A program made the translations under genes and the position numbers. DNA of 64,000 bases from Amphibalanus amphitrite (taxonomy: Eukaryota), in contig NW_024881521.1 in the NCBI RefSeq assembly GCF_019059575.1, forward strand, positions 729,297 through 793,296, read 5' to 3'. The first letter of the stretch is position 1. Each line of letters begins with the position of its first letter. Positions 6,338 to 57,477 of the stretch are shown here, in pieces. The notes under the pieces are model-generated. The model was not told the DNA's origin, ran no database searches, and saw only the letters and a list, made by a program, of their open reading frames with translations.

Positions 6338-6471
6338 TATCAACAAACTGTACTAGTTTGCTCACATATTTATGAATTAAGTGTTTGCCGAATGCTCATT
6401 CATTTTGCGATATTTTATATTGGCAATATGATAATGAAGACTGTGTGATCACACCCTGCCTTCATTTGCAG

Positions 6472-6907: not shown

Positions 6908-7111
6908 GTTTGACCTGACCTACATTGACGGCGAGACGCCTGCCTCGGAGCGGCCGGCGCTGTGCGAGCAGTTCTGCCGCCGGCCGCAGTGGGCGGTGGC
7001 GCTAGTGTCGACCCGGGCCGGCGGCCAGGGGCTGAACATTGTGGGCGCCACGGCAGTGGTGGTGGTGGACCCCAGCTGGAACCCGGCGCACGACCTGCAG
7101 GCGCAGGACAG
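6908..7111 (+). CDS. ERCC6L2: ERCC6L2-like exon g (FDLTYIDGETPASERPALCEQFCRRPQWAVALVSTRAGGQGLNIVGATAVVVVDPSWNPAHDLQAQD(R); helicase-C motifs V-VI)
   Basis: Acceptor ctccag|G, donor AG|gtgaga. STRAGGQGLN...DPSWNPAHDLQAQDR matches the canonical SNF2 STKAGGLGLN...DPDWNP..D.QA.DR. Confidence 0.9.
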
Positions 7112-7277
7112 GTGAGAGACGGGGCTAGTACGTAACCATGGAACTTCCTCACATTTTGGCGCCGAAACCCGGCTTGTATTCGTCCAGCGTTTACTCATCC
7201 CGTCACTCAGCTCTGGTCCAGTATTTGCCCCCCGGCCATGTGATTGTGTAAGTCCGACACGGGTTGCTTGCTTACAG

Positions 7278-7365
7278 GGCGTACCGGCTGGGTCAGACCA
7301 AGGATGTGAGTGTGTTTCGACTTGTCACAGCCGGTACGATCGAGGAGAACATCTACCTCAGGCAG
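7278..7365 (+). CDS. ERCC6L2: ERCC6L2-like exon h ((R)[29 protein letters not shown])
   Basis: Acceptor cttacag|G, donor CAG|gtcagt. AYRIGQ...V.RL...GT.EE.IY.RQ is the SNF2 motif VI tail. Confidence 0.9.
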
Positions 7366-7637
7366 GTCAGTGCCAAGGGTCCTAGAACGATCATTTTAAC
7401 AATGTAGAACCAGGCTCATTTTCTGATTACTTCCTCTAGCTATTGGCTAGGGTATTTTTACCTTTAATTTTGAAAGACGTCGCATTGGAGCCCCATATTT
7501 TTGGGGAACAACGCGAAATATGCGAGTCGTTCGTTGCATTTGAGGCCTTTGTCTGCGATCGTTGGCTGCAGTGTTACTGAAATTTCTAGCCACCCACGCC
7601 TCCTGACTCTCCATCTCTTCACCTCCCCGTCCAACAG

Positions 7638-7836
7638 GTGTACAAGCAGCAGCTCTCCACCCTCGCCGTGGAGGGCGGTACCGGCCCGCGACTGTTCTCC
7701 GCCTCCGCCGGCCGACCGGGCCTGCAGGGGGAGCTGTTTGGGCTGCACAACTTGCTGCAGCTGCGGGCGGACGGCAGGCTGACAGAGGGGCTACTGGACT
7801 CACATAGGAGGGTGGAGAGGCTCCTTACTGCCGCCG
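7638..7836 (+). CDS. ERCC6L2: ERCC6L2-like exon i (VYKQQLSTLAVEGGTGPRLFSASAGRPGLQGELFGLHNLLQLRADGRLTEGLLDSHRRVERLLTAA). An alternative donor at 7908 lies in a tandem duplicate.
   Basis: Acceptor caacag|GTG. The peptide matches ERCC6L2 IYKQQL...QGELFGIHNLF. Donor CCG|gtgagg at 7837. A duplicated donor copy (GCTG|gtgagg) at 7909 has the same phase. Confidence 0.75.
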
Positions 7837-8234
7837 GTGAGGGGCCGACTGAGGGAGTGAGGGGCTGCTGGACCCACAGGAGGATCGAGAGGCTACTGAC
7901 GGCCGCTGGTGAGGGGCTGAGGGACGGCCTGATGGATCAGGGACAGATTGAGGCTCCAAAGAACTGCTGGACTTGGACGTAATTTCTGAGACTGGATAAT
8001 TTTTTACTGCTGGCGGTGAGACACTGGGACTGAGAACTGGACTGGCCTGGACTGGCCTGAAAGGCAGTTGACGGACTGGTCGATAGAGTAATAGTTGACT
8101 GAGAGACCGATGGACAGCTGCTTGATGGACTGGCCGTGAGTTTCGTTGCTATTGTTTCGGAAAATCACCATCTGGTTATGCGCCCCTCCCCCGTATCACC
8201 ACACTAGCCAGAACATCCCCCCATTCCCCACCAG

Positions 8235-15267: not shown

Positions 15268-16877
15268 CTGGCGAGAGAACGGTTATGTCAGAAAAATGTG
15301 CGTCATACACAGTCAGAGGGGAGGAGTGAACGGGGTAGGGTAATGACATGAGTGAGTTGGTTTGGAATCTGGATACACATATACCCTGGATACACCCGGA
15401 GAATCTATCTGACGAAAGCTCAGGAGCTCGGGATAGAGTGTCAGGAAACGGTCAATCGAGCTGGACCGACGGGAGATAGACGAGACATTAAAATTAGCAA
15501 TGAGACGATGACCGGGGTCTAAATGGCAAGAGCGGGTCATTAGCTGAATAAGGTAACGGTACGCGCCAGGCAGTCTGCAGGAATACTCGCGGAATCTTTC
15601 CAAAATCTCGACAACCAGCCCGGTCCGCGGTGCCAACAGCTATCACCAGGCACACGATTCCGATCAGAATGGGGTCATGCGGGTATCAACTCCCGGGCGC
15701 CCAATTCAGCCCACATGCACGCTCACATTCACTCAAAATGCATGTGGCACGCAAAAGCCGCGCTAGCATACACCAAAGTACACTCTGGGGCTCTTTGTCA
15801 GTGCCCTGCTGAGCTCAGCGGGGCTGATGGTCAGCGCTGCGAGAGCCGCCGCTGCCGCTCTCAGTCATGGCCATACCACGCCGACTAATGCGAGCCAGGC
15901 TAATACACCCGGTCCGGACCGGCTGACCGCGGTCCGGTAAGATGCACGGTGTCCACGCCAGATCAGATCACGGCCGAGAGGCAACAGGCGACATAAGTCC
16001 CCAGATGGCGGAGACCAGCCGACCGCGGACAGGGACACATGGGACAGGATGGAATGAGCGGATCCCATGGGACAGGGAAGAGCGGTATACAAAGTTGGAC
16101 GGAACGGGACGGGATGGGACGGGGAGCAGACCGGATAGAATAAGAATAATAGAATAGGGCGGCGCGAGTGGAACCTGAACCGAAAATAAGACACAGGAAC
16201 AAGGGGAAACTAAATAAAGTACAACAAATAAAGTAGAACGAAACAGGCACAGATGAAACACGGAGAAAGGACGATGGAGATATGGACCGATTAGGACGGG
16301 ATATGAGTGATAAGACGGTACGAGATGCGATGGCGCCCGGTCAGTCCCAACTTATAGCACCACTCCGGCTGCAGGATCAGGCCGAGCGAGGCCGGTTCAG
16401 GATTTCCAGGATGTACGGACATCATATGTGAGGGTATGTCCCAGAGGATTATACCGGATTTGGATTGCAGGCATCGCAGGAATGCTCATTTAGAAACAGG
16501 AACATAGCCGCGACGGACTTGTTCAAGAGTTAGAGCTGGGCCGTGGGCGCTAATGCGGCAACATGCCAAAGCTACAGGGCCCGGCTCGGTTCAGTCCATA
16601 GTTACCATTCTTCCCGATGAAGCGAGCTTGAAAAGAGAATAGTAGTGCTTTTAGTTGGATCGCTTTTGATATAATCAGATACCTATCATCAATTAGCATA
16701 AGCCCCATGATGATTGTAATCCGACAGCCACGACTTGCCGAAATATCGGGTGTGTCCTGTCAAGGCCTAATCTCATCGAGCCGTCGTATTTGAATCAAAC
16801 AGGTTTCGTTAAAAACAACAAAACAGCTGCCTGTCTGCGCGGTGGAAGATATTGCTCAGTTTATGAGGCCCACTTAC

Positions 16878-17046
16878 AGATGAAGAAGTAGTCCTGGCCG
16901 GGCCGGAACTCTAGCCCTCCCGGCTGAGGTGTGAATGACCGGAAGGTGATGGTGAAGAACATCAGCTTGTACGGCTTGTCGCAGACAGCGATGATGCGCG
17001 GGTTCGGGTTGGTGATCCGACATGTGTCGTACTCCTCCTTCGACAC
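16878..17046 (-). CDS. Ephrin RBD exon 3: VSKEEYDTCRITNPNPRIIAVCDKPYKLMFFTITFRSFTPQPGGLEFRPGQDYFFI
   Basis: Minus-strand acceptor ttttcag|GTG and donor ATCT|gtaagt. FTI.F..F.P...GLEFRPG.DYFFIS is the ephrin core signature (compare EFNA5 ...[20 protein letters not shown]). Matches ORF 16861..17046. Confidence 0.9.
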
Positions 17047-20000
17047 CTGAAAACAGACGCGACGGTTAGGTCACAGGTCAGAGGTCACAGGCAAAATGTC
17101 ACAGGTCATGGTTGGGAAAAATGCCCTCGAGGCAGACTACTAGATCAGCATTTTGGGCCTACAAATGCGTAAATGATGTAAATGTGCATGTGATGCAAAC
17201 GGCCAGTGGGACGACACATAGGCAGGGGTCACAGGGAACATTCGAACAAGTCACCTGACCCAGACCAACGGCATTTAGAGCGCCGCAGAGGGTCACCTGA
17301 CCTAGGTGATGGTCGGTTGGGACCACAGGCACCGCAGCCATCACTACGCAACCGCCGAAGGAAGGGTTATCGACGGGTGACCGCACCGTGGACAGTAAAC
17401 GGTGGGATGAGCTCAGAGGTCAACAGCGCAGAGGCTCCTTCAACACCAAGTCCAATCTTAAACCCACCGACAAAGGAGTTGCGATAGCTCTGTTGAATTA
17501 ATTAATAACGACCGTCTCCATCAAAGAGACATATATTTAGTAACATCCTTTGTCACCACCGCCCAGACGTTTTCAAACCAGTCTACCAGCTCCGCCCGAG
17601 TCGCAGCGTTCCGGCGCCATCGAGTTTGATCGGCTTATCCCGCCGGTCCTGAGTCCTGACAGCTCCCCAGTCCCATGACAGGAGCGTCTGAGCTGCGTCC
17701 TCTGAGCCACCGGGGCCGCGATTTCGCCGTGAGCTGACGACGGACCCTGAATGGGGAGCCGGCGGACCGTCACTGGCAGTTTGGGCACCACAGAGAGGAG
17801 CAGACTCGGCCGCCGACGACAGGGTCGCGGGACGACAAAGCGCGGCACACCCTCCACCTGAATGGGCGGCGTCCCTGGCGGCGACAGTCAGCCGTCTGAA
17901 CGGATTAACCTGGGGAGGCTGCTGCTCTCTCTCCGGGACGGTCGCAGCTGCGGCGGCTCCGCTCTGCCCTGCTGCCGACTGTCCTCATAGGCCAGAGGGG
18001 AGGATGGCACTGTCACCGGCGGTGCCGACGAGCGGCTCTGAGCAGCGCGATCCGCCGCGACTGATGCCAACTGATGGCGGATCATGGTGGCGGCGCTGAC
18101 GGCAGCACCGAGCCACGACAGTCTGGACGAGGGTCTCCATCAAACGAGCAGCCGCCGGTGACCGGTAACACGAGTGGCAACACGGGCCAGACCTGTCGTA
18201 CGCTGTGGGCGATCCGATGCTGGCATTAGTGTGTGCAGTCACTGCTGGGACCGAGGCTAGGAACAAAACCAAAACCGACCCCAGGTTTGGGATAAGTGTT
18301 TGAAACGTCCACCGTCGCCGCTCAAGCGTCGTGCACTGTCTGTCGGCTGTCCGTCCATCTATCCTGCATCATATGCCCTTCGTCTGTCCGACCGTCCGTC
18401 CATCCGGCTGTCTGTGGCGAAGGATTCATCCGTTTGTCTATTCGTGTGTGGTGGTGAGGGTGCCGTCCGCCCGTCCGTCGTCCGCCACTCATCGTCTGTC
18501 CGTCTGTCTGCCCGTCGGTCGGCGGTCGGCGGTCGGCGCCGCGGCCGCAGCCGCAGCCCGTCCGGAGCCCCAGGCGGTGCCGGCCGCCGCACCAGACCAA
18601 TCACTCCACCGCTCATGACGAGACGGCATGCAACGCGCGCCCACCGCCGACCGGCCCGGCCCGTCCGCTCAGCTTCGGTCCGCGAGCAAAGCTGATGGAC
18701 GGTCCAAGGCACGTTAGCAAAGTGAAGATAGGAGTCGGCATCGGCAGTGCAGACAACTTCTCCGGGAGGATGCCGGTAGGCCAGAGAAACCTTGCATGCT
18801 ATCCACGGGTTTGACACGGACCCATGATTCTGACCACCCTGTCTAGCTAGCCTGTCGCTTAGACAAAGCTCGACTCCAAGGGCCGTGGTTTCAGACAACC
18901 ACCCTGCATGTCTCTCCACCGCCGCGTTGACCACCCATCGCCCCTGCACAGCCGTCCCGCCGCCACAATCGGCCCCCCAGCGCCCGGAGCCGTCAGGTGG
19001 TGGACGCTGTTTTCCGTTCGAGATCAATTATTGCGCCGGCGGCCTTGGCGTTAAATGCGCACGCCGGACAGCGATTGTGCTACCTCCGAAGGGCCCGCGA
19101 CTGCTGAGGGTCACCGAGGCGCCGGCTGGGCCCATTGAAAAGACCTGCGAGCAGTGTGTAGCCTGAAATACCAAGCGGAAGTCCGCGGAGCTGCGTTCTA
19201 GGGTCGGGCACACTGGGTGACCAGGCATGGCGTCCAGGTGCAATGGCGAGGCACGTGATGACGCCACCGGGATCACCTATGTTGACAGCCGAAATCCCCA
19301 TCACGCCGCGCCCCGACCCGACACGCCATCAGCGTGGCGTCATCGCCGGCAATAAAGGACGCGTCCCGTCGGCCGGCCATAAAGGCCGGTTCCTATCGGT
19401 GCGATATGGCAGCGCCGCTGAGCCGGGTGCAGCTCGGCCGCTCAGATAACCAGCAATAATCGCCGCGTCCGCGTCCACTGTCACGACTAATTTATGGCCC
19501 GGAACGGTGACGCAACGCGCTCTGAGGACGGTCGCAGACGGGCGTGATGCAATGGCCGTATACTGCAGTCGTGATTAGCGGATATGTATTGGCGTGTGGA
19601 TGAAATGCAGACAATGCGACCTGCCGTTTCAACAACAAAATTGTGCGCGACTTTTTTCGGCATTAATAACTCAACGAATGTTCAGTTGAAAAGAGAGGCT
19701 CGTGTATCATTTAAATTTGATCATCTCCAACTCAGTCGGTTAATCGGTAGGAATTCATTAAAAACGACAGGCCGTTTGAGTGACGAACGATCAAAGCAAA
19801 CCGAGCCACCGAGCTGGCTGGTGCACCATAGCTCATTTGTCAAGTAAACTACACCTGGGCATGGCCTGCACAGTGCAGAGACCAAGCCCAACACATCATC
19901 TGTACACAGCACAACAGTCGGTGGCCGGCGGACAATGCAGTTCTGCAGCTCGGTGCTGCACGCCGGACAGTGCTACATGTCCGGCCGAATTTCGCCCGGT

Positions 20001-20078
20001 GTGTGTCCCGTGGAATGCGGCCGTCTATTGCGCCGTTCGCCATTGACAAATGTGCACAGCCCGTTCAGCGGTACTCAC

Positions 20079-20220
20079 GTTATATATGATGTATTTCTCC
20101 GTATCCTCTTCCTTGGTCCATTCACTGTAGCTCGGACAGATAATGGTCACCTGGTCGTACTCGAACAGGTTGTTGCCCTTGTTGACGTCGATGATGTGGT
20201 CTGTGTTGCTGATCTGGAAT
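20079..20220 (-). CDS. Ephrin RBD exon 2: (I)FQISNTDHIIDVNKGNNLFEYDQVTIICPSYSEWTKEEDTEKYIIYN
   Basis: Minus-strand acceptor cctttttcag|A and donor AAC|gtgagt. The D.LDIICP...YYKLY(L)V-like block of the ephrin receptor-binding domain. Phase-continuous with exon 3 and with the exon 1 donor. Matches ORF 20025..20246. Confidence 0.85.
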
Positions 20221-23200
20221 CTGAAAAAGGAGAGAGACAGGCCCAAGTCAGATGATGTTTGACGCCACAGAATGGCATTTCAGACAGAAAGGGTTCACTG
20301 CATGGCGAGCTTTAGTGCGGCTCTACAGGGCATTATTACAGCCAGTCTGGGCGAGTCCAACAGGGCTAGCAGCACCAGTGAACAGACGGGACTGGGACTA
20401 GAGCAGGGCCAAAGAGCACCAGACACGACCGGCCGTCAGCGCACCGGGCCGGGGCGGGGCTCGACTTCTCCGGTCACGCCGTTCCGGCCGTGGCCACGGG
20501 CACTGTCTGGCGAGGGTGGAGCGCCACACTCGCCGCCGGAGCGCCACTTTCGCCGCCGGCAGCCGCGCACGGCCCACAGGAGGAGGAAGGAGTGGAAGAG
20601 GAGGTCAGAGTGGGCCGGGCCGCCCCACAGAGAGCCGCAGGGCATGGCGAAAAACGGCGCTCTCATGATCGGAGAATACGACCGATAACGGTATCCGACC
20701 CGACCCGACGGATGCTTGCCACTTGATCACAAGTCAGCGTTACACATAGCCGTGGATAGGCTCTACGGGCACCTTCTCCCGATTACTCCCTGACAAAACC
20801 ACAAATCCGCACCTCACTAAAATTCCGCTCCCACGCAGAAAAACGCGTTTTCTTGGCAAATACACGCGCACAGTCATCCCTCGCACGCAAAGGCGGCGCG
20901 GTGAATTAGACCCGCCGTGTGGCGAATTAGTCCCGAAGTGGTCCGAATTAGGTCTGCTATCAGCCGGGCGCGGGGCGCCACGTTTGCCCCGGCCCCATAT
21001 TGACACAGCGCGCGGAGCGGGATAAGGGTTTCCTGCGCCGGCCGTTTGCTCGGCGCGGCGCGGTGTCGAATGGCACCGGCCGCTGGGGGCGCGCTGTTTG
21101 ACAAATCGGAAGTGGATGGAAGCGGTCAAACAGGAGTGGCGCCGCCGGTCAATACGGGGTCAAACAGCCGGTCGGTCGGACGGACGGCCAGCTGGTCCCA
21201 CCGGACGTCCGCCGCGCGGCGCGGGACTCGGCGGGTCGGCTCGGCCGTGCAACTATCGGCGTACTGCTGACACTGCCGGCGAGTTGATACAAAGTACCGT
21301 TCCCAAAGACCGACACAAACATGCCAAACGTCCAGTCGGCAAAGAGTAATCGGACACACGACCGCCGGTGATAGGAATTTAGGGGCCGGTAACTCTACCG
21401 ACCACGGACCTCGCGCGGCGGTATATCTGCAGCGTGCCCTCTGCCAACAGTACCATGTTCCGCGCCACACGGGCCTTTGTTCGGGGCGGAGGGCGCGTCT
21501 CCGACCGGCGCCAGGTCGACGGGAACACTCTGACGATGCCAGACCGATCAGAGGTGGTCCGTGGTGAGGTACACATCGTGCTCGTCAGGTTGATCTGAGT
21601 CGGGCGCCGTGCCAGCCAACTGTCGGCGCGTCGGCACTGACCACGGCCCGCAAAACTGCTGAGACGACGGCTCGATTCAGCGCTACATACAGGCAGTGGT
21701 GCAGCGGCGAGGCAGCGCAACGCAGGGGTACACACGCACACAAACCACCGTCACGCATTCTGCGCACGGACGGAGGGGAGAACGGCGCAGGGGAGAGGAG
21801 GGGAGCCGAGTCGGCGGCGGCGGTCCCCTGTACCGGCGCGGTGAGACGGATACCCTACACCTGGCGTGTCGAGCGGCAGGCGCGTCGCACAGTCGGCAAA
21901 CACGGTCCGAAATCCCACAGACCGGCGGCGGTTCAGCAGCCCAGGGGATCACTGGGGACTCGAAGATGGAACGGACGGGGTCGACCCGCACCCTGCCCTC
22001 CTTTACCACTCGCTCATCCAGTCACCCTCTCTGCCCGCGCCTCCCTCCTCCACTCTCTCCTCTCTGCGCGGCGCGCCGTTCTCGCAGATCCGTATCGTCG
22101 CCGCCGGCGGCGCCCGGCCGGCCGACCGACCCAGATGTGAGCGGCGCCATCATCTCCGTCGAACGGGAACGGACGGACCGCCGCATCGGCCGGCCGCCTG
22201 CCTCCCAGCGCACGGACGGAGGGGAGCACCGCGTCTCCCCGGCCCGACAGATCAACACATGACTGACCGACCGGTCCACTGTCAGGGTTGATGGACGAAT
22301 GGGTAAAGGGACAATCCACAGGGACACAGCCCGAGGGTCGCACAATAGCAGCGTGTAAAGGCGCACGTGCCGCGTGTGTTTCAGTCCACGTGTAATCACC
22401 ACTGCCTGGCGTGTTACACGTGTTGCCGCGGTTACGGCAGCAGCGGACTCGCAATTATCGCCTAGGGGAGAAGGCGACTGCAGAGGACGTGGTTACTGCT
22501 TCGCGGTCGTAGATCACAGCTGGTCTACCGCAACACTGCCAGTGCAAAATTTGCCCCCGGCTTATCCTACCTGTACCAGCACTGTCCCGGATCTACGGCA
22601 TTGTCCCCTCTGACCGTTGTTGCGCTTTACTCTCTGGCTGCTGCTGACACCATAGCTCCCAAAGCGGGCTACACCAGCGCACTACAACTCACTCTTGGAA
22701 AGTGTGGCGGCACACGCGGCGCGGCGGAGCCCATTAGTGCACTGAATGGGCGGCGGCAGAGGTGGGCAGGGCGGCTGCCAATCGCGCGGCGCACGACCTC
22801 CGCAGCTGCCGCGCCGGGGCCCGGAGCCGGAGACGGCCGCCGCCGGAGCCGGGCCGGGCCGGACCCCGGGTCCTTGAGTCGGCGTGGGAAACGCGCACCG
22901 ACCGGTAGATCATAAGAACTGGTTGTCGGCATGTCAACCAGACAACTCAGCAGTCAATAGATTTGATTCATTGCATTCCGCAGGATAAAGACAAAACAAC
23001 TTGCAAGCTGTCCATTTTTGGCAACAAAGGTGGCCTCCCATAAAGCTCCTTTCAACATGCGCAATGAATTATGAATTACGACAAAATAATGCTCCCGCAA
23101 AAACAGCGAACAACACAAATACTGTGTAAAAACAATGCTTGACCTCCAGTCGCCAATCAGGAACCCTACCACAAAGCGCCTGCAACATCCGCCACCGCCG

Positions 23201-31200: not shown

Positions 31201-33325
31201 TGAGACGCACACAACCGCCGGATTACACGGAAACAAACCATTTGTTTATAGAACAAAGTCAACAGAGCTGCAATTAGGAAGTTATTGGAGCACTGATAGC
31301 ACACGAAGTCGATCTAAATCGACAACAGATGACACGGGGAACTATTACCCGTTTGTCTGAGATGCGGCAATTGCTTATCTAGCCAGAGATAATCTAGTCA
31401 AGCACACTGTCTGGCTGACGGGCGAACCGTTGCGTATAAAGGCAATCCAGGAAGCCGAGACTACGACAGGAAGACGTCACAACTCGGACCATCAGCCGTG
31501 CCTCACCGATACACCGGCTGTTTGACACACTGTGGGCCGACACAGACACCTCTGCCGCCAGGCTTACCACCGCCGCTGTGGAATAGCTCCGATCCTCGGT
31601 CTAAGGACGCCAGACGTCTCGGCCCGGCCCAGCACACCCGCGTCGGCCCGAGCGGCGTGCCAGGGGGCGGAGTCGAGCGACGTCCAAGGAAAGGACGTCG
31701 GCAGAGGAGCGACATCTGGCCCGGCGCACGCCACTGCTGCGTCAGGTCCGCCGCGCAGCGCAGGCAAATTGCAGAGCACTGGAGGGAATTTCCAGAGCGC
31801 GCCGGTGCGGCCGGCGGCGCTGGACCGGCGGCGGCGGCTGGCGGTTCAGTGTCCGCGGGCCGCCTGTGATTCATCCCGATCTGCCACGCCTCTGTAATGG
31901 GCCTCCACCGACCCTGAATTAATGCCGACACACCGCGCACGAATTAATCATATCGGAAAAATCGGTTCAGAGCTACGAGTTAATCGCCGGGGACGCCGGT
32001 GCCCCGGGCGGTCGAGGAGACGGTTGCGTGCTGTACCGAGCGGGACGGTCGGACCCCGCTCACCGATTTTCGACGCTCCATACATCACGGATGACCAAAC
32101 GGCCAATCGGGGCACCGCCTCCCTCCACCAGTCGGCCCTCCACTTAACCCGCATGTGCCAACAGCGCCGAACCGAGCCAACATACGCCCAACTCCGCTCT
32201 GCAGATGAGTTTCGCAGAGCACTGAGAGCGAAGCTGTGACTGCTGCCAGTGCGGTGCCCATGACCAGCCGCCCCGTCCTGCCCGGCCCCGGCCGTTGATA
32301 TTTACGATCCGGAACACGAGGGCGGCTGGTCCGCTCGTAAGGTGGCTCAGAATGCGGCGCGGCCGGCGGGGCTGGCAAACACCGCCCTGCGTCGCAGCCT
32401 CCTACCCCGGCGGCAATGGCGCGTGGCCGGCGCTGGCAGGGCCGCCGCGGCGGACCCGGCCACATGTGGTCAGAGAGGGCCGCTCTCTGCCGCCGCGGAC
32501 CCTCCCCCTCCCCCTTCCCCGGGGTGGCGCCCCAGTCGGTCCAACCGGCGGCAGGTACCGGTCGGTATTGAAAACCAGCAAACGGTAATGGGACGACCTC
32601 CGTCGTCGTCAGGGCCGGGTTAGGCGCAGCGTCCTCGAGCTGGGATTGGTCGAACGGCCTCCCCGTGTGCGATTAATGACACGACAATTATCTGCAGTCG
32701 CTTTGGAGACGCCGCCGCCGCCGCCGCCGCCGTCCCACCGCGCAGTGCACCGCGGGGGATGAGAGGGGAGGGGCGGGGCTACGGCGACGGGACTAACAAC
32801 CACCACGCACCCTTCGGGCGTGCCTTGTACCGCGTCCTGTACTCATTCAGTGCGCTATGTAGTCAGATGTTTCGAAAGAATCCGACAAAGGATTATCGCA
32901 AGGAGCGATATATCAATGAGCTATTTCGGGACAAGAGTCGCGCTAATTTTATCGCATTCTCCAAATGGTCGCAAGACAAAGCCCCATCTTTTCCCGATGA
33001 TAATGCTATGCTGATCGGGAATGGGATGATAGCTATCAGCACCGCACTGCAATCACATGCAAATGCCAGTCAGCGGGCCGGTGCTGAGCAGCTGGACACG
33101 TTTGACGCCCTCGCAGGGTCTCTGCAGGCCACCCCGTGAGGTCCAGCACCCCTGAGCTTGCTGGAGTATCGCCACGATACATAAGGTCGATGAACATTGA
33201 ACGGCATACCGGGGAGAGCGGCTAGGCACAGTACGCCCTCAGTCCTAATGACACGTGCTTATACCGTGCCGACATGAGAGGACATGACACGTCTCTACCG
33301 ACATCTAGCTGTCGCATGACAGACG

Positions 33326-34596
33326 CACAGTGGCCCTTTTTCAGAATTAGCACGCATAAATTCAAAATATTTTTTCTCTTCTTTTGAGTAAAAAGCAGTC
33401 TAATCGTGTGCAAAACATTCCAAACTATCCGATGGTGCCATTTTTACCTCCTAAAAACTAATTGTCTTTGGTAAAACTGACCGCAAAATCGAAGTTTGTC
33501 GAGAGGCGCGCGGACACCACCGGCGGACCCTAAAAAGTAGGGTGAGATGAACATCAATTTGTAAGGCTTTCGGTGAGAAAATGTTAAAAATTAGTGGCAT
33601 GGCTGTGAAGCTGAGTTTACGTAGAAGCCCTAGAAACCACAATTTTCATTGTATAAACTTCAATAGACCACTTTTGCCGAATATTGTGGACACAATAACA
33701 GGACAATTATTAACTGGAGATGGCGGCATACATATGAAGCTTTATGTTAAGCAGCACACTCTGGAACATGTCGTATTATACATCGTTCGAATCGCCGATC
33801 TCTTCTGACCATGTCCACCAAAGGGCATCGCGCCATTTTGCGCCATTTTGCTTCTACGGTGGATAATGTGAGCCAGTTCAGTCCGCGAGCGGCTGTGGCT
33901 CCTGTTCGATACGACTAAGCTCATTGACCTGGCTCGAAGCTGGTGTCACCAGGTGCGGTAAACCAGGTGTCACCAGGTGCGGTAATCTCACCAAGTGCGG
34001 TAAACTCAATTTGGGGTAAAATACCAAACTACCCCACTCCGTAACTACAAAAATACTACCCCGAAATTAGTTAAACTAGCTTGGTTAGGTTGGACACTTG
34101 GCCCAATCTCACCAAGCTAGTTTAACTAATTTCGGGGTAGTATTTTTGTAGTTACGGAGTGGGGTAGTTTGGTATTTTACCCCAAATTGAGTTTACCGCA
34201 CTTGGTGAGATTGGGCCCTGGTGTGCGCCTAAATGTGGCTTGACTTTTGCCATAAGATGTGCTAATTGAAATTATACTAACGGTGGCTGGCAACAGCTGT
34301 AGATGCGGTCACGTGACGCCCTGGGGCGTCCTGGCGGTCAGTGCAGCGCGGTCGGCTGGCGGGCTCGCCACACTTGCGTTCGGAGCGGCCTGGCCGGCGG
34401 GCGAGCCGTGCGAACGTGCGCCAAATCTTGGCCCGAGCGGCCTGTCGCTGTTGGGCCGAATCTCCTTGGGCAGTTCGTTTCTTTTCTTCTCTTTGCATTG
34501 GCAGGGAATACGTCCTTGATCACGTGGTGATGTCTTGCACCACTTTCAGGTATTGTGGGAATTAATGCGTGCTAATTCTGAAAAAGGGCCACTGTG
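33326..34596. mobile_element. Transib-like non-autonomous DNA transposon (1271 bp): 38-bp TIRs beginning CACAGTG (RSS-heptamer-like), 5-bp TSD AGACG
   Basis: Left TIR 33326-33363 (cacagtggccctttttcagaattagcacgcataaattc) is the reverse complement of 34559-34596 with one mismatch. AGACG sits at 33321-33325 and 34597-34601. No transposase ORF inside. Confidence 0.65.
33987..34208. repeat. Near-perfect foldback palindrome, ~99-bp arms and ~25-bp loop, embedded in the Transib-like element
   Basis: ctcaccaagtgcggtaaactcaatttggggtaaaataccaaactaccccactccgtaactacaaaaatactaccccgaaattagttaaactagcttggt ... loop ... exact reverse complement. Preceded by 3 tandem caccaggtgcggtaa units. Confidence 0.9.
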
Positions 34597-36295
34597 AGAC
34601 GGTCAAACCATGTCGACAGTGAGTGTCGGCGTCGGTACGACGGGCGCCGTGAGGTGTTCGGGGCGGGCCGGCTCGCGTCAGGTAACGGGTCACTCGGGAA
34701 CCTGACCGTGCCGGGGCGGGCCGAGCTCGACGGGAGATGCCATCTGGCCCGGCGCCGCGTGCCCGACCAGGAATGTAAGAGGCGAGAACGGCGCAGTGGT
34801 GACCGGTGGCGGCGGGACGGTGGGAGGCAGAGCCACATGGGGTATGGTGGGGTACATCACCGTTGCAGAATGCACTCGAGTCACAGCATCACCAGCCGGT
34901 AGAGTACTCACCTGAAACAGACAGAAAAACACCCATTAGTGGCACAGTCGGACACAGCACGGCGCGCGGCGAACAGAGGGACGCAGTGAGAGGGCACGTG
35001 CGCTTCAGCGCGGCGGGAGGCGGTCCGCTGCAGAGCGGAGAGAGGGGTACAGAGGAGAGGGACAGAGGCAGAGCGGAGGGCCGCCGGCTCCCCGCTGAGT
35101 CAGCAATACGTCACAATAGCCGCGCGGCCGACACGGCGCTGCAACTCCTCCCAGCTACAAAGCAGCCGACGGCCGGCGCCGCTCAAAAATAAAATTCATT
35201 ACACGAAACAGTTGGGCGCACAGCTGTATGGGCGGCTCGGGCGGCGGCGGGGCGGCGGCGGCTCGGGCGGCGGGGCGGGGCGGCACCTCCGGGACACATT
35301 GTCCCTGCCGAGCGGCAGCCGCAGCTGCGGCTTTGGCTCGTCTCCGGAGCCGCGCTCGCCGACGGCTGCGACGCGTCGCTCCCGTCTCGCGCGTCGCCGC
35401 GGCCGTCGCGTCGATATCGATTTGGCAGACGTCTCGCGCGTCGCGGACCAGCTCGCGCGCGCCTCGCCAGCTCTCAGGCTCGCTCCGCCGCCCTCGTTAG
35501 TCCGCAGGACGGCCGACAGCAGGTGCTTTGATGTGGCGCAGCGCTACGTCTGTGACGCTCAGCGACCGCGCGTGACGCTATGTGACTCCATGTGACGCTG
35601 CCGGCACCGTGACGCCAACGCCGGGAGGAGGACACGGTCGTTTTTCACATCGGTGTCACTTAGGACGACTGTCCTGGGACATTGTCCACCGGGCGAGCAC
35701 ACGAACCGCAGAGAAATTACTGGGATTGCGCGCGTTGTCGAGATAAACCGAGACGCAACCCTTGGCAGCCGGCAAACGAGTCACGTCGTGCACACCGATA
35801 ACATTCTGACCTCTGACGGTTCGGAACTTCTCTGGCGAGCAGCTCTCTGTACATCGCGCGCTACTCCCGTGCAATGTCACCCGCGCTCTTTGCCTGTCAC
35901 ACGTCGCCTATTCTGTCCACCGTCAAATGTCGGTCCCTGCCACCGCTATCCGCACAAACCATTTGCGCTACGTGAGGCCCCGATCTCCTGTATCCTTCCC
36001 CAGCACACCGCGGCCGCTGACAGTCCTGCACCTGCATTGCCATTCCATTGTGAGCCGTCAGCGACCGGTCAGAGAACGTGCACCTGCGCCAGAGCCGCCG
36101 CCACCGCGCCAGGATCGCCGCCGCAGCGTACAGCTACCGCAGGCCCTTCACCGGAGCGGGCCGGCCCCGCGGAGAGGCGGAACAGGTTGGGCAGGTATCG
36201 GTGATACATTGATTTTTGTGGTGGCCCGGTCTGCAGCCTGACCGGTGCGTGGCACGCCGGTCGAACCGGCTACCGACGACTCGGGGGTCGGCAGG

Positions 36296-36432
<137 letters not shown>

Positions 36433-39400
36433 TAGCCAGTCAGCCAGCCAGTCAGCCAGCCAGACACACAGACAGACAGATGAACGAGACCGGGAGGTGA
36501 GTCTGCTCCCACTCTGCACCGCGACGACCGCCGGAACGGAAGATCGCGGGTTGCAACAATCAGTGCGAAAGTTCAGCCCTCTACCTATAATCCTTTTCTC
36601 CTGGCGGACAGGTCCTGAGAGCTGAGAGTCCAACACATCCAAACCGCAGGCCGCACCCGCGAGGTCATGGTGTCGACAGCAATGAGAGGGGATGGGACTG
36701 GAGGGGAGGGGAGGGAGTCGCCTCGACCTTCAGTCATCACGATTAATACCGCAGCCAAACGTGGCCGGCCGGCTGACTGCAGCAGCGTAGACAACGAGCG
36801 GCAGGGAATCGGCCTGCACAGACTAATTGGTCCGCGACCAGATGACCATCCGCGGGTGGCGTCACGGGCTCATGATGACGTCAGGAGATCTCATGACGCC
36901 AGGGGATCTGATGACGTTCGAGATAGGTGAATATACCGGGCTGGTGAGGAGTCCGTCTCCAGAAGTCCCTAGTGTGTCTCGGTGCTGATACCAGCTCGTC
37001 CGCCAGGGCATGCCGTGTGTATTTGGCCAGGAAGCACTCACCCAACGAGAGCACCGGTGACGCCCCCTGAGACCTGGCATCACCCCAGTGCGTCTCGGCC
37101 GGTCGGCACGCCTCTGGCCTTACTCCAGGCCTGGGTCATGTCGGAAGGGTCGTGCCTCAGGCCACTGGCACTAACCGGTCCACCACGCCGACCCGAAACG
37201 ACGCCCACTGAGCCGCCGCCGGCAGTGATCCTGATTCATGGTCGCCGAAAAGGAAATCTCGCCTCCGAGTTTTGGTCAGTCAAGGCAATTTCAGTGAGCC
37301 ATGTGTGAAATCCAGAACCGCAAGAGCCTGGGGAAATGCTTGCACTCAGCACGATGCATATCCTCCGAAGGAGTTGTTTTCCGATTCAGGACCCGAATTC
37401 GTGGCAGTATCGTTCCCGTCTTAATGCACTAACGTCGTCGCTTCATGACTGTAGTTTGATATGCACTTCGAGTCTGACATGTAGATGGCTACTGTCTGTC
37501 TGTCGGCGCATGTAATGGAACCGCCGCACAGATACCGCCGGCCGCCTCCAGCCGCGTCTCGGCCATCTCAGCCGTCTCCGCCGCTGTCCCCTGCAGAGCA
37601 CGCCATTCCCAGCAATTACGGCACGATCATAAATACGGCGGCGTGTCCCGTCTGAGGCCGACTGAGAGCCGCGCCCGCCGCCAGCACCGGACCGAGCACC
37701 TTTACGGTCTCACCGGGCGACACTCTATCGGCCGGCGCGGTAAAACCTCGGCCCGCCGTGATAAAAGAAAATCTAATTAAGTGGAAGGCCGGAGATTCGT
37801 CCAAACAGCGCTCGTACCGGGCCCGGCAGACGTGTCGGCCGGCCGGGTCAAAATTAGCCTTCAGTTGCCGCAATAAAACGGGATGAGACCAGAGTCGGGC
37901 AGAGGGTAAGGTTAATATCCTGGGAATGCTGTCGACGCCGGCCGTACAGGAACCGCAGCTATGCGCCGCCGCCGCCGCCGCCGGTCGGTCGGAGCGCCGG
38001 CGGGCTGCGGGCCGCGCCCAGACAGCCGCCGCCGCGGCCCGGGGACACTTCAAACGCTGCTGAGTGAGTGTGACAGCGCCGCGACAGCGGAGAATCTGCC
38101 GTCGGCTCACATCACACAGCCGTCCGGATGGACGTCACCGGCGTCGGCCAAACAAAGCATAATGTGGTCTGCAGAGCGGACGACAAATCAGACGGGGACA
38201 GCTCCGGTGATGAGGCGACTGTCGGCCGGGAGAGTCGAGCCGGCCAGCGGGCGGCGCCGTGCCCTCCGTCGCATAATGGGCCCAGCGGGAGGCCGCCGGT
38301 CGGGCCGACGGCCCAGGACGCCTCCTCTGTCGCCGGAGCGGAGGAGCACACCAAACACAACAGCCGCCCGGCGCACCCCGGCGCACTCCGGCGCAGAGCG
38401 CGCTACTCGGCGCAGGTCATCCAAACAGCGCCGCGTTTCTGGCAGCGCCTCCCCGGCCCGGCTCGGCGTGGATCGCCGTCGAACGCCGGCCGTCGACAGG
38501 CAGTGTCGTCTGGCCGTGTCCAGGTGTCAGCTCGAAGGTCGCGCTCGTTCCTGAGCGCTCAGCTGTGTCGCCGTCTCGCCGCTCGGAGACACAGCGCCCG
38601 GTGTCACCTCGCTCGCCAGCTCGGCGCCGGCTCGTGTGTCGGAACAGACGAGGGGCGGCCGCGCGTGGCGGCGGTGTCGTCGAAAATTGCCAGCAATGCC
38701 ACAATTCACGCGCCCGGGAGTCTTACTAAGCTTCCGTCATCCACGCGTCCACCCCGACTCCGTCAGCCGTGATTCTACCGGCGCCGCGCGCAGCCCCAGA
38801 CGCGCACTGATTGGCTCTAATTCCTCTGCGGTCCCTGACCAAACAAAGCGGCCCGAGTGGGTTCTGAAGTCGACGGCGGCGCGGCGGCGACCGTCCGGTA
38901 AAAACAGCCATTGTGGTGTCGGCGCCGGCCCCGCCCCGTCGAGTGCTCGTTACCGGCGTGCCACTGCCGACCGGTAGAGGAGGGAGGTGTGCGCGGACGA
39001 GCGGCGAACGCTCAGAGTCAACAGGTGTGAGACGCGCGGTCGGCTGCCGGGTCAGACAGACGGGTCGATCGACATGGCGTCACCGGGGCAACACTGGAGT
39101 ACAACAGTCTGCGAGAGGGAACTAAAAACGGTCGACTGAGCTCGCCGGCTCGCTCGCCGGATTGCACAACTCGTCTGTGTGCTCTGACAGGGGAGTGAGT
39201 AAGGGGAGGGGAGTGACCGGGTGGATCGGAGCCCCGGGAGCGCTCTCGGTCAACTGCAGAGACCCTTCTGAGCTCTGACGGCTCCCGCAGCGGTGCCGAT
39301 CTCGGCGACAGCTCGCCACGGGCGGCCGAGGCTGCGCACCGCCCCGCCCGGCCGGGGTCCGCCGGCGACGGCAGAAATAAAACAGTGCATTACTCGCTTC

Positions 39401-40494
39401 CGGTGCCGGCGGCGACGTTTTGTTTTTGCACGGCGGCGGCGGACGATCATGAAAGGCGGCGCCGGGGCACCCCGCGGCCCCGGCTCAGCCGGATCTCCGC
39501 GACGGGCGCGGACGGCCGACCGGCAGTCACAGGCAGAGGATCACGGTCGAGGGAACTTCCGTCGCCCGTGAGCCCTCGGCTGCCGGCGATCCGCTCCGCC
39601 CGCTCCTCAGCGCTGGCCTAATTCCATGTTGTCAAATCCGAAAATTGGCGACTGGACGACAAGATGAATGATGAGCTGGCCCGCACGCCACTATCGCCCC
39701 TATCGGCTATCGGCAGCCGAAGGGCCACGGGCTAGGTTCGTGTGCGTCAGCTGAACGGTAATGAAGTGGGATGCTCCCGGTGTGGGATACGACTTTCGAC
39801 CTTCCTGCCGTGCTCCTCGGCACACCTGAGGGCGATTTTCTCATGCGCTGCCCGCTCTGCCTTCGGGTGCGTTGGCGGCGACTCGCGTGGAAGATGGCCG
39901 ACCAGCGATTAGACGCTTATTTTATTAACAGAACTAGCCGCTTTCCGTATAAGCGCCGTAAATAAATGAGCCAGGAGACGAAAACAAACACAGTGATCGT
40001 CCATGGCTCCGCAGTGATAACGGCCGATTGCCGCCGAAACAAAGGCCCGGGGCCGGGCGGCGGCGGCGGGCGCTTGGTGATGACTCGCAGCCCACGAGCC
40101 GGGCTATCAGTTCTCCCAGGGACGGCGCACCGCTCCGGGCTGGACGCGTGCCTCGTCCGGCCACAGACTGCCCGTCTATCTGCTGCCCTATCTGCGTGTG
40201 TGTCACCACACTTGCCAGGAACAGATAGCACGGGAGAGTGATGACAGACTGCGTCTAAACTGGGGTCGCCGAACCGACCGGGCCGCCACAGGTCGCCGCC
40301 TCTGATGGACTGGCATGTCAGACAGTACCGCTGTGTTTGTATATCTATCTTGTCTGTCAATATCCACCTTACTGTCCCAGGAGCTTCTCAGTCTTTACAA
40401 CGTCGATAGTCCTTCACGCATGATTCACAGCAGTCGCTCTACGCCCTCCTAGTTCCTACCAACCCTCAGTGCCTTCCAAGTCATACCACCCCTG

Positions 40495-40735
40495 CCGCCT
40501 CTCAGTGCCTCCCTCCGCCCCCAGTGCCTCCCTCCGCCTCCCTCCGCCCCCAGTGACTCCCGCCGCCTCTCAGTGCCTCCCTCCGCCTCCCTCCGCCCCC
40601 AGTGACTCCCGCCGCTTCCCTCCACCCCATCCAGCGCCTCCCGCTGCCTCTCAGTGCCTCCCTCCGCCTCCCTCCGCCCCCAGTGACTCCCGCCGCTTCC
40701 CTCCACCCCTTCCACCGCCTCCCGCTGCCTTCTGC
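40495..40735. repeat. C/T-rich minisatellite (~70-80-bp units: cagtgcctccctccgcctccctccgcccccagtgactcccgccgc...)
   Basis: Direct reading. Accounts for the long ORFs on both strands at 40449-41129. Confidence 0.8.
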
Positions 40736-46769: not shown

Positions 46770-49700
46770 ATGCCTGTCGAGTTGCAGAGCAGCCGATGCA
46801 TGACGCAGACCGGGTGTGTATGTGTGTGTGTGTGTGGGGGGGGGGTGCGTGTGTGTGTGTGTGTGCGTGTGTGTTAAGCGCAAAGTGGCCGAGGCGTCGG
46901 CAGCGGACCAGGTGTGTAGTGAAGACAGAGTGGCCGAGGCGTCGGCAGCGGACCAGGTGTGTAGTGAAGACAGAGTAGCCGAGGCGTCGGCAGCGGACCA
47001 GGTGTGTAGTGTAAACAGAGTAGCCGAGGCGTCGGCGCCGGACCGGATGTATGCGTATGTCGATGCAGAAATACGGAGGCGGCCACTTAGAAAATACTTG
47101 AGACCTTTTTACAAAGAGACTCCTTGAGTGCTAAACCGAGCCTCCAAGGTGACTGGCTGAGATGTGTTTCTGCGGCAGCGTATGTCCATCAAGTTGCGTT
47201 CGGAAGCGCTTCTCGAAATGCGTGGTCTGTTTTGACAAGGGGCATTATCCTAAAGCTGGTCTCTGAGGCAAAAAAAAAGAGATGCTGTTTTCCAGTCCCG
47301 GCGAAGAAAAAAAAAAGAATGTCGAGTTGCAGAGCAGCCGAGGCGTCGGCGGCGAACCTGTTGTATATGTATCTACGTATGTATGTATGTATGTATGTAT
47401 GTATGTATGTATGTATGTATGTATGTATGTATGTATTCACGTCATAGGGCACATCCCCGTAATTGAGGCTTTCCTGTACCCTGGAGTCGTTAATATAAAA
47501 CAGACGATCAGTTGGGTCAGCATACACATACATACACATGCACACACGTGCACCCACATGCACACATCTAACCAACCCCCCACGTTGCCTCGTCAACAAG
47601 TGCTGCTTTATCTCGCTATTGAAGCGGCTCCCAGGCAGGTTTCGTGTCACGCTTAGCAAGATGTTATATGCGATGACAATAGCGTGTCTGAACTACGCCT
47701 GCCAGACTCCAATCGAATCGCCGGCGTGACTAAATGGTCTGCGTTCCGTGTTGTACGGTACGGCGGTGAACATCTCCACGAGTGACCAGGTCGCCGGCGA
47801 TCGACTCAGGCTCTGATGTCACTAAAAGGCGCTTTAGTAAGCTAAGTGCCTACCGTGTTGCAGAGGGCCGAGGTGACGGCGGCGCACCTGGCCCTGTAAA
47901 TTGCAGAGTAGCCGAGGCGTCGGCGGCGGGCCTGATGCGTGTGCATGGGTTGCAGATTAGCCGAGGCGCCGGTGGCGGACCCGATGTGTGCAGGGGTTAC
48001 AGTGCAGCCCAGGCGTCGGCGGCGGGCCCGATGTATGTGCATGAGTTGCAGAGTAGCTGAGGCGTCGGCGGCGGTCCTGATGTACTTACGTGCAAGGGTT
48101 GCAGCGTAGCCGAGGCGTCAGTGGCGGACCTGATGCGTGTGCGTGAGTTGCAGAGTAGCCGAGGCGTCGGCGGCGGGCCTGATGTATGTGCCGTTGCAGA
48201 GTAGCCGAGGCGTCGGCGGCGGACCTGATGCATGTGCAGTTGCAGAGAAGCCGAGGCGTCGGCGGCGGACCTGATGTATGTGCCGTTGCGGAGTAACCGA
48301 GGCGTCGGGGGCGGACCTCATGCATGTGTGTGAGTTGCAGAGTAGCCGAGGCGTCGGCGGCGGACCTCATGTACGTGCGAACATGGGTGGAGAATTGTTT
48401 TCAAAGTTGGTATGGCGCCAGTTGCTTGAAACAATACTATCGTGTTTTATTCTTATCAAACTGAAAACCTTAAATTTCGTAGCTTTTACCCTGAAAAAGT
48501 TGGTATGGCATTGCCATACCATCTTTTAAGTTGGTGTGGCGCGTGCCATGCCTGCCATACCATATTCTCGACCCATGCCGGTGCAGAGTTTATGGGGTGG
48601 CTGAGGCTATACGACGGCGAGCCTGATGTGTGTGCATGAGTAGCAGAGGAGCCGAGGCGTCGGCGGCGGACCTGATGCAAGTGCATGAGTTGCAGAGTAG
48701 CCGAGGCGTCGGCGGCGGACCTGATGTGTGTGCGTGATTTGCAGAGTAGCCGAGGCGTCGGCGGCGGACCTGATGTATGTGCGTGATTTGCAGAGTGGCC
48801 GGGGCGTGTCGGCGAACCTGATGTGTGTGCGTGGGTTGCAGAGTAGCCGAGGCGTCGGTGGCGGACCTGGTGTATGTGCAGTGCAGAGTAGTGATGTCAA
48901 CTACGGAAAATCGGAATACCGATACCAAACCAAGTACCAACCTAGGGTGCATTATACCAACAAATTACCGAACACATTAGGAATCAAATACCAAGTACCG
49001 AGTTGGTATCAGTATGGTATCGGTATACCGAAAAGTTGTATCCGAGGACATCTCTACTGCAGAGTAGCCGAGGCGTCGGCGGCGGACCTGATGCATGTGG
49101 GTGCCGAGGCGTCGGCGGCGGACCTGATGTATGTGCGGTGCAGAGTAGGACGTCGACTACGGAAAAATCGGAATACCGATACCAAACCAAGTACCAACCT
49201 AGGGTGCATTATACCAACAAAATACCGAACACATTAGGAATCAAATAGCAAGTACCGAGTTGGTATCAGTATGGTATCGGTATACCGAAAAGTTGTATCC
49301 GAGGACATCTCTACTGCAGAGTAGCCGAGGCGTCGGCGGCGGACCTGATGCATGTGGGTGCCGAGGCGTCGGCGGCGGACCTGATGTATGTGCGGTGCAG
49401 AGTAGGACGTCGACTACGGAAAATCGGAATACCGATACAAAACCAAGTACCAACCTAGGGTGCATTATACCAACAAAATACCGAACACATTAGGAATCAA
49501 ATAGCAAGTACCGAGTTGGTATCAGTATGGTATCGGTATACCGAAAAGTTGTATCCGAGGACATCTCTACTGCAGAGTAGCCGAGGCGTCGGCGGCGGAC
49601 CTGATGCATGTGCGTGCCGAGGCGTCGGCGGCGGACCTGATGCATGTGCGTGCCGAGGCGTCGGCGGCGGACCTGATGCATGTGCGTGCCGAGGCGTCGG

Positions 49701-49910
49701 CGGCGGACCTGATGTATGTGCGTGCCGAGGCGTCGGCGGCGGACCTGATGCATGTGCATGAGTATTTATGTGCGTGAGTTGCAGAGTAGCCGAGGCGTCG
49801 GCAGCGGGCTTGATGTATGTGCAGTGCGGAGTAGCCGGGGCGTCGGACGCATTGCAGTTGCAGAGTAGCCGAGGGGTCGGCGGCGGACCTGATGTGTGTG
49901 CATGAGTTGT
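46770..49910. repeat. Composite satellite block. It contains a 45-bp unit x3.5 (46885-47045). A ~49-bp monomer (gagttgcagagtagccgaggcgtcggcggcggacctgatgtatgtgcgt) forms arrays at 47880-48370 and 48620-48890. A ~245-bp higher-order unit x3 lies at 48895-49630, and a 31-bp sub-array at 49560-49905. (GT)n sits at 46814-46874 and (ATGT)n at 47376-47436.
   Basis: Direct reading. Identical ORF-track peptides at 49003..49248, 49260..49493 and 49516..49761 confirm the ~245-bp period. Confidence 0.85.
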
Positions 49911-56423: not shown

Positions 56424-56531
<108 letters not shown>

Positions 56532-57477
56532 CATCTTTTTCTCTTACACTCTTTCTCTCTAACCTCATTTTGATACGATGCCTGAACAGAGGAACGTTTT
56601 AGGAACAGCTCGGTGATCGTCTAAGACGGACATCGACTTTAGTCCTGAATCACCCTGACGACGATAAATGATGGGTGACGAGTTACACATGTCCATCTTA
56701 TGACCCGATGAACGACGGAGGCAAAGTCTCCTGTTCAATGGGATCCGCTCGAGTTCTCTCGTCTGGGAGGCGAGTATAATCAACGGCGCTTCAGCGTGTA
56801 GAGCTTCGCGGTCCGTCGATTGTGCTTATTTGCCGGCACGGAATTTTGTATAACCGAAATTGGCGAGGCGCTTTGACGAATTTTTGGTCATTTGATACAA
56901 AAACTGTTTTGAGTAGTCCCATCTCTATTATACGATGACGGTGACCACACGACGGTTTCAGCGCCGCGCAAGGAATTCTTTTCGGTTCGTCGGGCTGCCG
57001 GCGTCAGTCAGCATCGGCGTCAGTCAGCGACTGACTGAAGTGGCTGGCCGCCGCGCTGCCCCAAACGTCTACCGCGCGTGGGAGGCGCCAACACGAAGCT
57101 CGTGAGAGAGAGGAGGCCGGCGCGATCGTGTCAGTTTCTGCAGACGCTCCTCGGCGTGAGAAAACACATGTAATCTCGTCAGCGTTCCGGACATATATCA
57201 TCGCTGTCAGATCAGACGCAGGCATTCCCTCGTCGTTAGGTGTCCGTCGATCGGAGAAAGTTATAGCCAATCGCAGCCGCAGAGTAATTGAGTCGTAAAG
57301 AATAAAATATAAATATATTTCCGCCTGGCTGACAGGCTGCTCAGACAACAATGGGAGGAGCGTTTTGCATGCTTGGTCGCCCCGGACATCGTCGAAACAT
57401 AAATCAGAGAGAAATACAATCGCACCCCGCCTTGCTGTCCGATCGTCCGCTTCATCGCATCCCGAGCAGGTACTCAC

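Follow-up and report, generated by a model that had tools for sequence, protein, structure and literature searches.

Passages of the description by Kapitonov and Jurka (PMC1131882) present Transib as the sole eukaryotic DNA-transposon superfamily with 5-bp target-site duplications. The termini described there are 38 bp long and contain a heptamer that starts with CAC, a spacer of 22–23 nt, and an A-rich nonamer. Positions 1–3 and 34–35 are conserved, and according to the same passages these conserved positions (CAC at 1–3 and AA at 34–35) are common to Transib ends and recombination signal sequences. Parts of a second report (bioRxiv 10.64898/2026.08.26.747230) add that some Transib lineages deviate from the 5-bp target duplication, and that internally deleted or rearranged Transib derivatives of ~1.3–1.4 kb exist in Drosophila and result from microhomology repair. 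More generally, gap filling after excision, with template switches at microhomologies, gives rise to internally deleted or rearranged non-autonomous derivatives (PMC8277862). Hairpin-forming repeats trigger template switching at replication forks, and the risk of instability of a palindrome goes up with longer arms, higher identity, and a shorter spacer (PMC7999016).

The DNA analysed here is a 64-kb stretch, hereinafter designated the window. Positions 33984–34212 of the window form a near-perfect foldback DNA palindrome of 229 nt, located in the non-coding interior of a transposase-less element with ends of Transib type. The features of the locus are listed below in window positions, with the strand given where one applies.

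33321–33325: left target-site duplication AGACG, 5 bp, identical to 34597–34601 and directly outside the inverted ends.
33326–34596: putative non-autonomous Transib-type DNA transposon, 1,271 bp, defined by its inverted ends and target duplication.
33326–33363, plus strand: left terminal inverted repeat, 38 bp; CACAGTG, a 22-nt spacer (GCCCTTTTTCAGAATTAGCACG), then CATAAATTC.
33937–33984, plus strand: two tandem 24-nt units, each with CACCAGGTGCGGTAA, abutting the left arm; 92% identity, also detected as a TRF array, with exact 15-mers at 33947 and 33971.
33984–34093, plus strand: left palindrome arm, 110 nt; variant motif CACCAAGTGCGGTAA at 33989; ends AATCTCACCAAG and CTTGGTTAGGTT.
34094–34102: central spacer ACACTTGGC, 9 nt, the loop of the predicted hairpin.
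34100–34217: right-arm unit at its maximum extent, 118 nt; quasi-palindromic, with inverted ends that are perfect over 17 nt, GGCCCAATCTCACCAAG / CTTGGTGAGATTGGGCC.
34103–34212, minus strand: right palindrome arm, 110 nt, reverse complement of the left arm.
34290–34480: GC-rich block in the right-hand portion of the element, with a maximum of ~73% GC in the composition profile.
34559–34596, minus strand: right terminal inverted repeat, 38 bp; ends CACTGTG, with the A-rich block CATTAATTC.
34597–34601: right target-site duplication AGACG, 5 bp, by direct reading.

The 5-bp target duplication AGACG abuts both inverted ends, and both ends are recombination-signal-like over ~38 bp. Specifically, the terminal repeats are complementary at 37 of 38 positions, the similarity stops exactly at position 38, and both ends carry CAC at 1–3 and AA at 34–35. 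Judged by its ends and target duplication alone, the host element is of Transib type, a superfamily that is classified primarily by transposase. On the same evidence, the 38-bp ends complementary at 37 of 38 positions and AGACG on both sides, the preliminary description of this DNA was right to place the palindrome within a "Transib-like element". One insertion cannot reveal a target preference; here AGACG has 60% GC and the window ~59%.

The element contains no transposase gene and no open reading frame longer than 87 aa. The longest stop-to-stop reading frame is 87 aa, and reading frames across the palindrome reach at most 62 aa. A chimeric query comprising all 16 reading frames of at least 40 aa found no protein homologues among 5.8 billion proteins. 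Because of the lack of any reading frame above 87 aa and of protein homologues, the element is regarded as non-autonomous. A coding function of the palindrome itself was rejected on the size of the reading frames that cross it and their lack of homologues.

Over most of its length the element has a GC content of ~37–55%, compared with ~59% for the whole window. The GC-rich block at 34290–34480 is unlike the remaining element in composition, possibly because a piece of host DNA was captured. Neither significant matches in the rest of the window nor protein homologues were found for this block.

MITEs are usually smaller than ~800 bp. The element had also been termed a MITE, and its inverted ends, target duplication, and non-coding content agree with that term, but its length of 1,271 bp exceeds the canonical MITE length. 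A long MITE-like non-autonomous derivative is the better label, as has been argued for Transib derivatives of ~1.4 kb (bioRxiv 10.64898/2026.08.26.747230), which the element resembles in size.

A repeat search defines two palindrome arms, 33984–34093 and 34103–34212, each 110 nt long, 98% complementary, and separated by 9 nt. Base-by-base comparison identifies only two mismatches between the arms, at left-arm positions 34086 and 34089, both no more than 8 nt from the centre. The exact part of the palindrome comprises the outer 102 nt, 33984–34085 against 34111–34212. A perfect foldback with ~100-bp arms had been reported at 33987–34208; it is present and, with its 110-nt arms, slightly larger than stated. 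The exact arms of ~99 bp around a 25-bp loop given in that report describe the same object, but stop 3 nt short on either outer side and take the imperfect 8+9+8-nt centre as the loop.

Both mismatches fall in the innermost 8 of the 110 arm positions, an outcome with a chance of C(8,2)/C(110,2) = 0.005 if their positions were random. This clustering at the centre is compatible with junction errors or centre-directed stabilisation. Since the 12-mer end is the same in three of its four copies, the inner-end changes are assigned to the left arm. The outer borders of the palindrome are sharp. Beyond the arms the two flanks share a 7-mer at most, a match equalled in 166 of 500 shuffles, and a continuation of the symmetry past the arms was rejected on this result. 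No other inverted repeat of the window comes near the palindrome in length, and an inverted-repeat scan of the 64 kb found no second palindrome of such kind.

The arms have an internal structure of their own. The 15-mer CACCAGGTGCGGTAA is present in two exact copies upstream of the palindrome and in one copy with a single change in each arm, the variant motif CACCAAGTGCGGTAA of the left arm (33989) being mirrored at 34193–34207 in the right arm. Three caccaggtgcggtaa units had been described as preceding the palindrome; two of them are indeed exact and upstream (33947 and 33971), but the third, CACCAAGTGCGGTAA at 33989, carries one change and is located within the left arm. The left arm directly continues the short tandem array upstream, whose repeated motif is also the terminal motif of the arm.

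Taken singly, each arm forms a quasi-palindrome of ~110–118 nt. In the right-arm unit the inverted ends are perfect over 17 nt and extend to 40 nt at 80% complementarity, and folded alone this unit has a predicted energy of −50.6 kcal/mol (z = −4.4 against shuffles). Three copies of the 12-mer AATCTCACCAAG are present in the window, whereas 0.24 would be expected by chance. The overall architecture is that of a palindrome built from a quasi-palindrome.

The locus is predicted to fold very stably both as DNA and as RNA. The DNA fold of 33930–34230 has an energy of −146.7 kcal/mol, compared with −37.3 ± 3.7 kcal/mol for shuffles (z = −29.7), and the RNA fold of 33975–34222 has an energy of −205.2 kcal/mol (z = −26.5) and consists of a 110-bp stem with a single small internal loop. 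The earlier proposal of a cruciform-forming site agrees with these z scores. Extrusion of the palindrome in hairpin or cruciform form could make the locus fragile or prone to rearrangement, and any transcript crossing the palindrome would contain ~110 bp of perfect double-stranded RNA. Such palindromes had been called unstable unless young; this is fair in general, but it does not hold strictly here, where the centre is imperfect (a 9-nt spacer with two mismatches in the adjacent 8 bp). The tendency to extrude is probably lowered because of this spacer and the two nearby mismatches.

Further copies were sought in the window and in searchable sequence collections that do not include the source genome, which limits the reach of every negative result of these searches. 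The window contains neither a second copy of the element nor its terminal repeats elsewhere. The right-arm unit and the 12-mer end have no further copy in the 64 kb or in the metagenome, prokaryote-genome, and viral collections. A metagenome scan with the 19-nt element end returned three loci, in all of which the similarity ends at the 19-mer, indicating chance matches; the prokaryote-genome and viral collections contained no match to a 23-mer from an arm or to a 24-mer from an element end.

As for the surroundings, the window also contains a MITE-like inverted repeat at 6119–6337. Spliced exons of an ERCC6L2-like SNF2 helicase, chosen by third-position GC, are located at 4.0–7.8 kb. The best near-full-length protein matches of this helicase are ~41% identical, coral among them, while the closest partial matches of its helicase C domain (70–73% identity) are on metagenome contigs and do not represent close relatives; one such contig carries arthropod-like receptor genes. 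An ephrin-domain protein is encoded on the minus strand by two exons, 16864–17070 and 20028–20279 (PF00812, E = 4.6e-23). Because the window encodes an ephrin-domain protein, the host is probably an animal, or else closely related to animals, and its genome is unusually rich in GC. Pfam searches of the ten longest reading frames of the window returned low-complexity noise only and found no family in the reading frames neighbouring the element (33–35 kb), and exact look-ups of two window reading frames in protein records gave no match.

With somewhat better than an even chance, in our estimate, the palindrome is a passenger sequence, namely an inverted duplication of an already hairpin-prone non-coding segment of the Transib-type element. 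The starting segment would be a ~110-bp unit with its own 40-nt imperfect inverted ends, located beside a short tandem array. The inverted duplication would occur by strand or template switching in replication, or alternatively by error-prone gap repair after cut-and-paste excision, and would leave two inverted copies of the unit 9 nt apart inside the element. The nested quasi-palindrome, the adjoining tandem array, the sharp borders, and the changes clustered at the centre all fit template switching, and we infer such an origin. No unambiguous microhomology is present at the duplication junctions, no unique template-switch path can be reconstructed from them, and the original arm cannot be told from its copy.

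Transposition of the element would proceed with transposase supplied in trans, for which the 38-bp ends would be sufficient, and the palindrome would be no part of the machinery. Because the element would need only its 38-bp ends to be mobilised in this way, the palindrome is best seen as a passenger, probably with no dedicated function. The earlier suggestion that it is internal cargo of a non-autonomous element agrees with this, the element having ends of Transib type and the palindrome lying in its interior.

A different origin, by insertion, would make the palindrome a nested mobile element, either a foldback element or MITE inside the Transib-type element or two mini-MITEs of ~110–118 bp with GGCCCAATCTCACCAAG ends, placed head to head. 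The perfect 17-nt inverted ends of the right unit, which continue to 40 nt at 80%, are as this would have them, and the MITE-like inverted repeat at 6119–6337 indicates that small elements of such kind exist in the genome. In addition, GGCC borders 34104–34213 left and right, as a 4-bp target duplication could. However, GGCC is self-complementary and may equally well belong to the inverted ends, and at the left copy both GGCC and a flanking direct repeat are missing. A systematic scan of the whole-palindrome borders found no direct repeat of at least 3 bp together with matching termini, so that the palindrome does not resemble a recent nested insertion; there is no target duplication beside the inverted termini, as a foldback transposon or nested MITE would have, and its absence would not be expected of an insertion so recent that 102 bp are still exact. 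Solo copies of the unit are lacking in the 64 kb and in the metagenome, prokaryote-genome, and viral collections, and the tandem array that leads directly into the left arm, being made of the terminal motif of that arm, argues for a local origin. We consider a nested insertion improbable. That the right unit can be read as a mini-element of 110 bp, with the palindromic GGCC as its 4-bp target duplication, nevertheless counts against an inverted duplication in place, as a hint of mobile origin. A nested Transib-like insertion consisting of the palindrome, or of its right unit lengthened to ends starting in CAC (34095–34223), was also considered and rejected, the flanks TTGGA and TGCGC forming no duplication.

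Excision chemistry offers another route to a palindrome. Transib, hAT, Mutator-like, and RAG enzymes form hairpins in flanking DNA, which are opened by host nucleases and joined, leaving footprints, according to passages of PMC5499845 and bioRxiv 10.64898/2026.08.26.747230. The palindrome could in principle be an oversized footprint of this process: a hAT- or Transib-type element at the centre was excised, and one flank hairpin was cut open at a distance of ~110 nt from the tip, after which fill-in and rejoining produced a giant P-nucleotide inverted duplication. Such a model predicts sharp outer arm borders, as observed, but also symmetry through the centre, where a 9-nt asymmetric spacer and two mismatches are found. 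Known footprints measure only a few nucleotides, the centre holds no recognisable remnant of a target duplication, and the quasi-palindromic nature of the arm is left unexplained, all of which makes a footprint very improbable. Quite improbable, too, is a foldback present throughout the family that the Transib life cycle generates or exploits, arising from hairpin excision chemistry or kept as a self-silencing siRNA module. Palindromes are difficult to sequence and clone, and the structure could have been introduced by assembly or sequencing, for example as a foldback chimera of a long-read library carried into the consensus. Yet the palindrome is short and internal, its flanks are unique and differ from each other, and the element ends and duplication are intact. 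Moreover, the spacer is not adapter sequence, mismatches near the centre and nested structure are unlike a read-level foldback, and no similar palindrome exists elsewhere in the 64 kb. An artefact is likewise very improbable.

The palindrome could also serve as a source of hairpin RNA, its duplex of ~110 bp being cut by Dicer into siRNAs directed against copies of the family or a host target; we regard this as possible, though unlikely. The transcript would come from read-through or from within the element, and parallels would be the long hairpin-RNA and endo-siRNA loci known in insects and the small-RNA hairpins that derive from MITEs in plants. The capacity to form a long near-perfect RNA duplex, as endo-siRNA loci have, is present in the predicted fold with its 110-bp stem (−205.2 kcal/mol, z = −26.5). 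The host is probably an animal, and many invertebrates turn long hairpins into siRNAs. The only Rfam likeness, seen under a relaxed threshold, is to miRNA families modelled as long hairpins with full pairing (MIR2863 at 75 bits, and MIR6440, MIR1862, and MIR1435), but every score is below the gathering score of the respective family, so that at gathering scores the palindrome reaches no Rfam family. Specifically, the scores in bits against the gathering scores are 75/94 for MIR2863, 58.6/95 for MIR6440, 56.8/84 for MIR1862, 52.9/94 for MIR1435, 38.8/100 for mir-8536, and 34.2/99 for MIR6135. Five of these six are MIR families, which we take to be plant families derived from MITEs. Of the six top families, four (MIR6440, MIR1862, MIR1435, and mir-8536) match both strands nearly equally, and MIR2863 and MIR6135 match the plus strand only; the alignments are driven by pairing, with little sequence identity. 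The likeness to these families is one of shape, and any perfect palindrome would score likewise. A perfect stem of 110 bp is moreover unlike a canonical animal pre-miRNA. The "miRNA-like precursor" of the preliminary description is therefore not supported, its Rfam matches being sub-threshold and structure-driven and its stem having the wrong shape for an animal pre-miRNA; a source of long hairpin RNA or siRNAs would be a closer parallel.

Non-autonomous DNA transposons with internal inverted duplications are already well known, as are hairpins derived from transposons. The locus adds a clean, apparently young Transib-type insertion (perfect target duplication, heptamer CACAGTG) in a GC-rich, animal-like genome to which the protein collection searched offers no near relative, and this bears on the distribution of RAG-like transposons. 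Given small-RNA data for the organism, a perfect 110-bp hairpin within a mobile element would also be a test case for the seeding of siRNA or miRNA loci by transposons, and the palindrome site may trouble assemblies, PCR, and cloning. If true, the life-cycle reading would tie RAG-like transposition to the birth of palindromes or to small-RNA control in a poorly sampled animal lineage.

Among known systems, TransibN of insects and Kodama/Hopper of Drosophila melanogaster share with the element the 5-bp duplication and the 37–38-bp ends with a CAC-heptamer, spacer, and A-rich block. Likewise, they are without a transposase gene and have lengths near 1.3–1.4 kb. The heptamer of the element, CACAGTG, is that of the vertebrate recombination signal consensus, whereas the Transib consensus, in the passages on these elements, is CACAATG. 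The interior of the element differs by its 229-bp foldback and GC-rich block; such a foldback is unmentioned in the Transib passages of PMC1131882 and bioRxiv 10.64898/2026.08.26.747230.

Endo-siRNA loci and miRNA genes derived from MITEs (MIR2863, MIR1435, and MIR1862) have in common with the palindrome a long near-perfect hairpin of transposon origin. The covariance models of these three families align end to end with it, under their gathering thresholds. The families are mostly from plants, whereas the host here is animal-like, and there is little primary-sequence identity.

Drosophila foldback (FB) transposons and "double Ds" share with the palindrome a long inverted repeat and a potential for rearrangement, and here too short tandem sub-repeats are present, at one outer edge. 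Repeats of FB4 and frequent rearrangement in FB elements have been described (PMC8277862). In contrast to FB elements and double Ds, the inverted repeat here is internal and does not form the termini, the two extra sub-repeats are on one side, and the borders have no duplication. Fragile palindromes such as inverted Alu pairs in yeast and human PATRRs likewise have arms of at least ~100 bp, ~100% identity, and a short spacer (PMC7999016), but the palindrome described here does not reach the size of the classical fragile palindromes, and its centre is already imperfect. Nothing here points to a novel type of element: the palindrome appears to belong to the usual anatomy of transposons, and its host, as judged from sequence, is a new non-autonomous element of Transib type.

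Several tandemly repeated regions are present in the window, and ORFs coincide with some of the repeats.

69-3168: GC-rich tandem array, ~71% GC
40490-40730: 2.8 tandem copies of an 81-bp unit, 91% identical, with a + strand rich in C
46884-49757: complex satellite region with 36-, 45- and 49-bp units (GCCGAGGCGTCGGCGGCGGACCTGATG...)
36299-36480: long ACAG microsatellite, ~45 copies
47366-47436: long TATG microsatellite, ~18 copies
56429-56560: long microsatellite, a CT-rich run of 132 bp

The array at 69-3168 is composed of degenerate tandem units of 39, 48, 87 and 126 bp, which are arranged in a higher-order repeat of ~984 bp. The 1,078-aa ORF at 91-3327 is a product of this array and is spurious. 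In the satellite region at 46884-49757, the higher-order repeat that holds the units is 257 bp long and is present in 3.2 copies that are 97% identical; repetitive pseudo-ORFs arise from this region on both strands. The 81-bp repeat at 40490-40730 also gives rise to long overlapping ORFs on both strands, which are probably not genes.

Two further features lie in the interior of the Transib-type element, the non-autonomous DNA transposon that holds the near-perfect palindrome. Specifically, a 10-bp tandem pair is found at 33831-33850 (GCGCCATTTT x2), and the block from 34290 to 34480 peaks at 73% GC, compared with 37-50% GC in most of the remaining interior. One possible origin of this GC-rich block is the capture of a piece of host DNA.

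The coding features, and the inverted repeats near or within the SNF2-family helicase gene, are as follows.

3717-3771: palindrome with 25-nt arms, 96% complementary, and a 2-nt spacer
4027-7979, + strand: SNF2-family helicase resembling ERCC6L2, encoded in spliced exons
6119-6337: MITE-like inverted repeat with 60-nt arms, 98% complementary, 99 nt apart
16864-17070 and 20028-20279, - strand: ephrin domain encoded in two exons (PF00812 in Pfam, E = 4.6e-23)

The intron between the two ephrin-domain exons is ~3 kb long, and these exons are the chief ground for regarding the source as an animal or something closely related to animals. A stretch richer in AT, shortly upstream of the helicase exons, holds the palindrome at 3717-3771 and, 244 nt further downstream (3988-4014), an inverted copy related to it. 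The MITE-like inverted repeat, the arm sequence of which is GGTACACTCGGGGGCAGATTG..., is located between exons of the helicase gene and is a second such structure in the window.

The third-position GC of the helicase exons is very high, reaching up to 0.91. In the protein collection, the best near-full-length identity of the helicase is only ~41%, indicating that the source lineage is poorly sampled; a coral protein is among these near-full-length matches.
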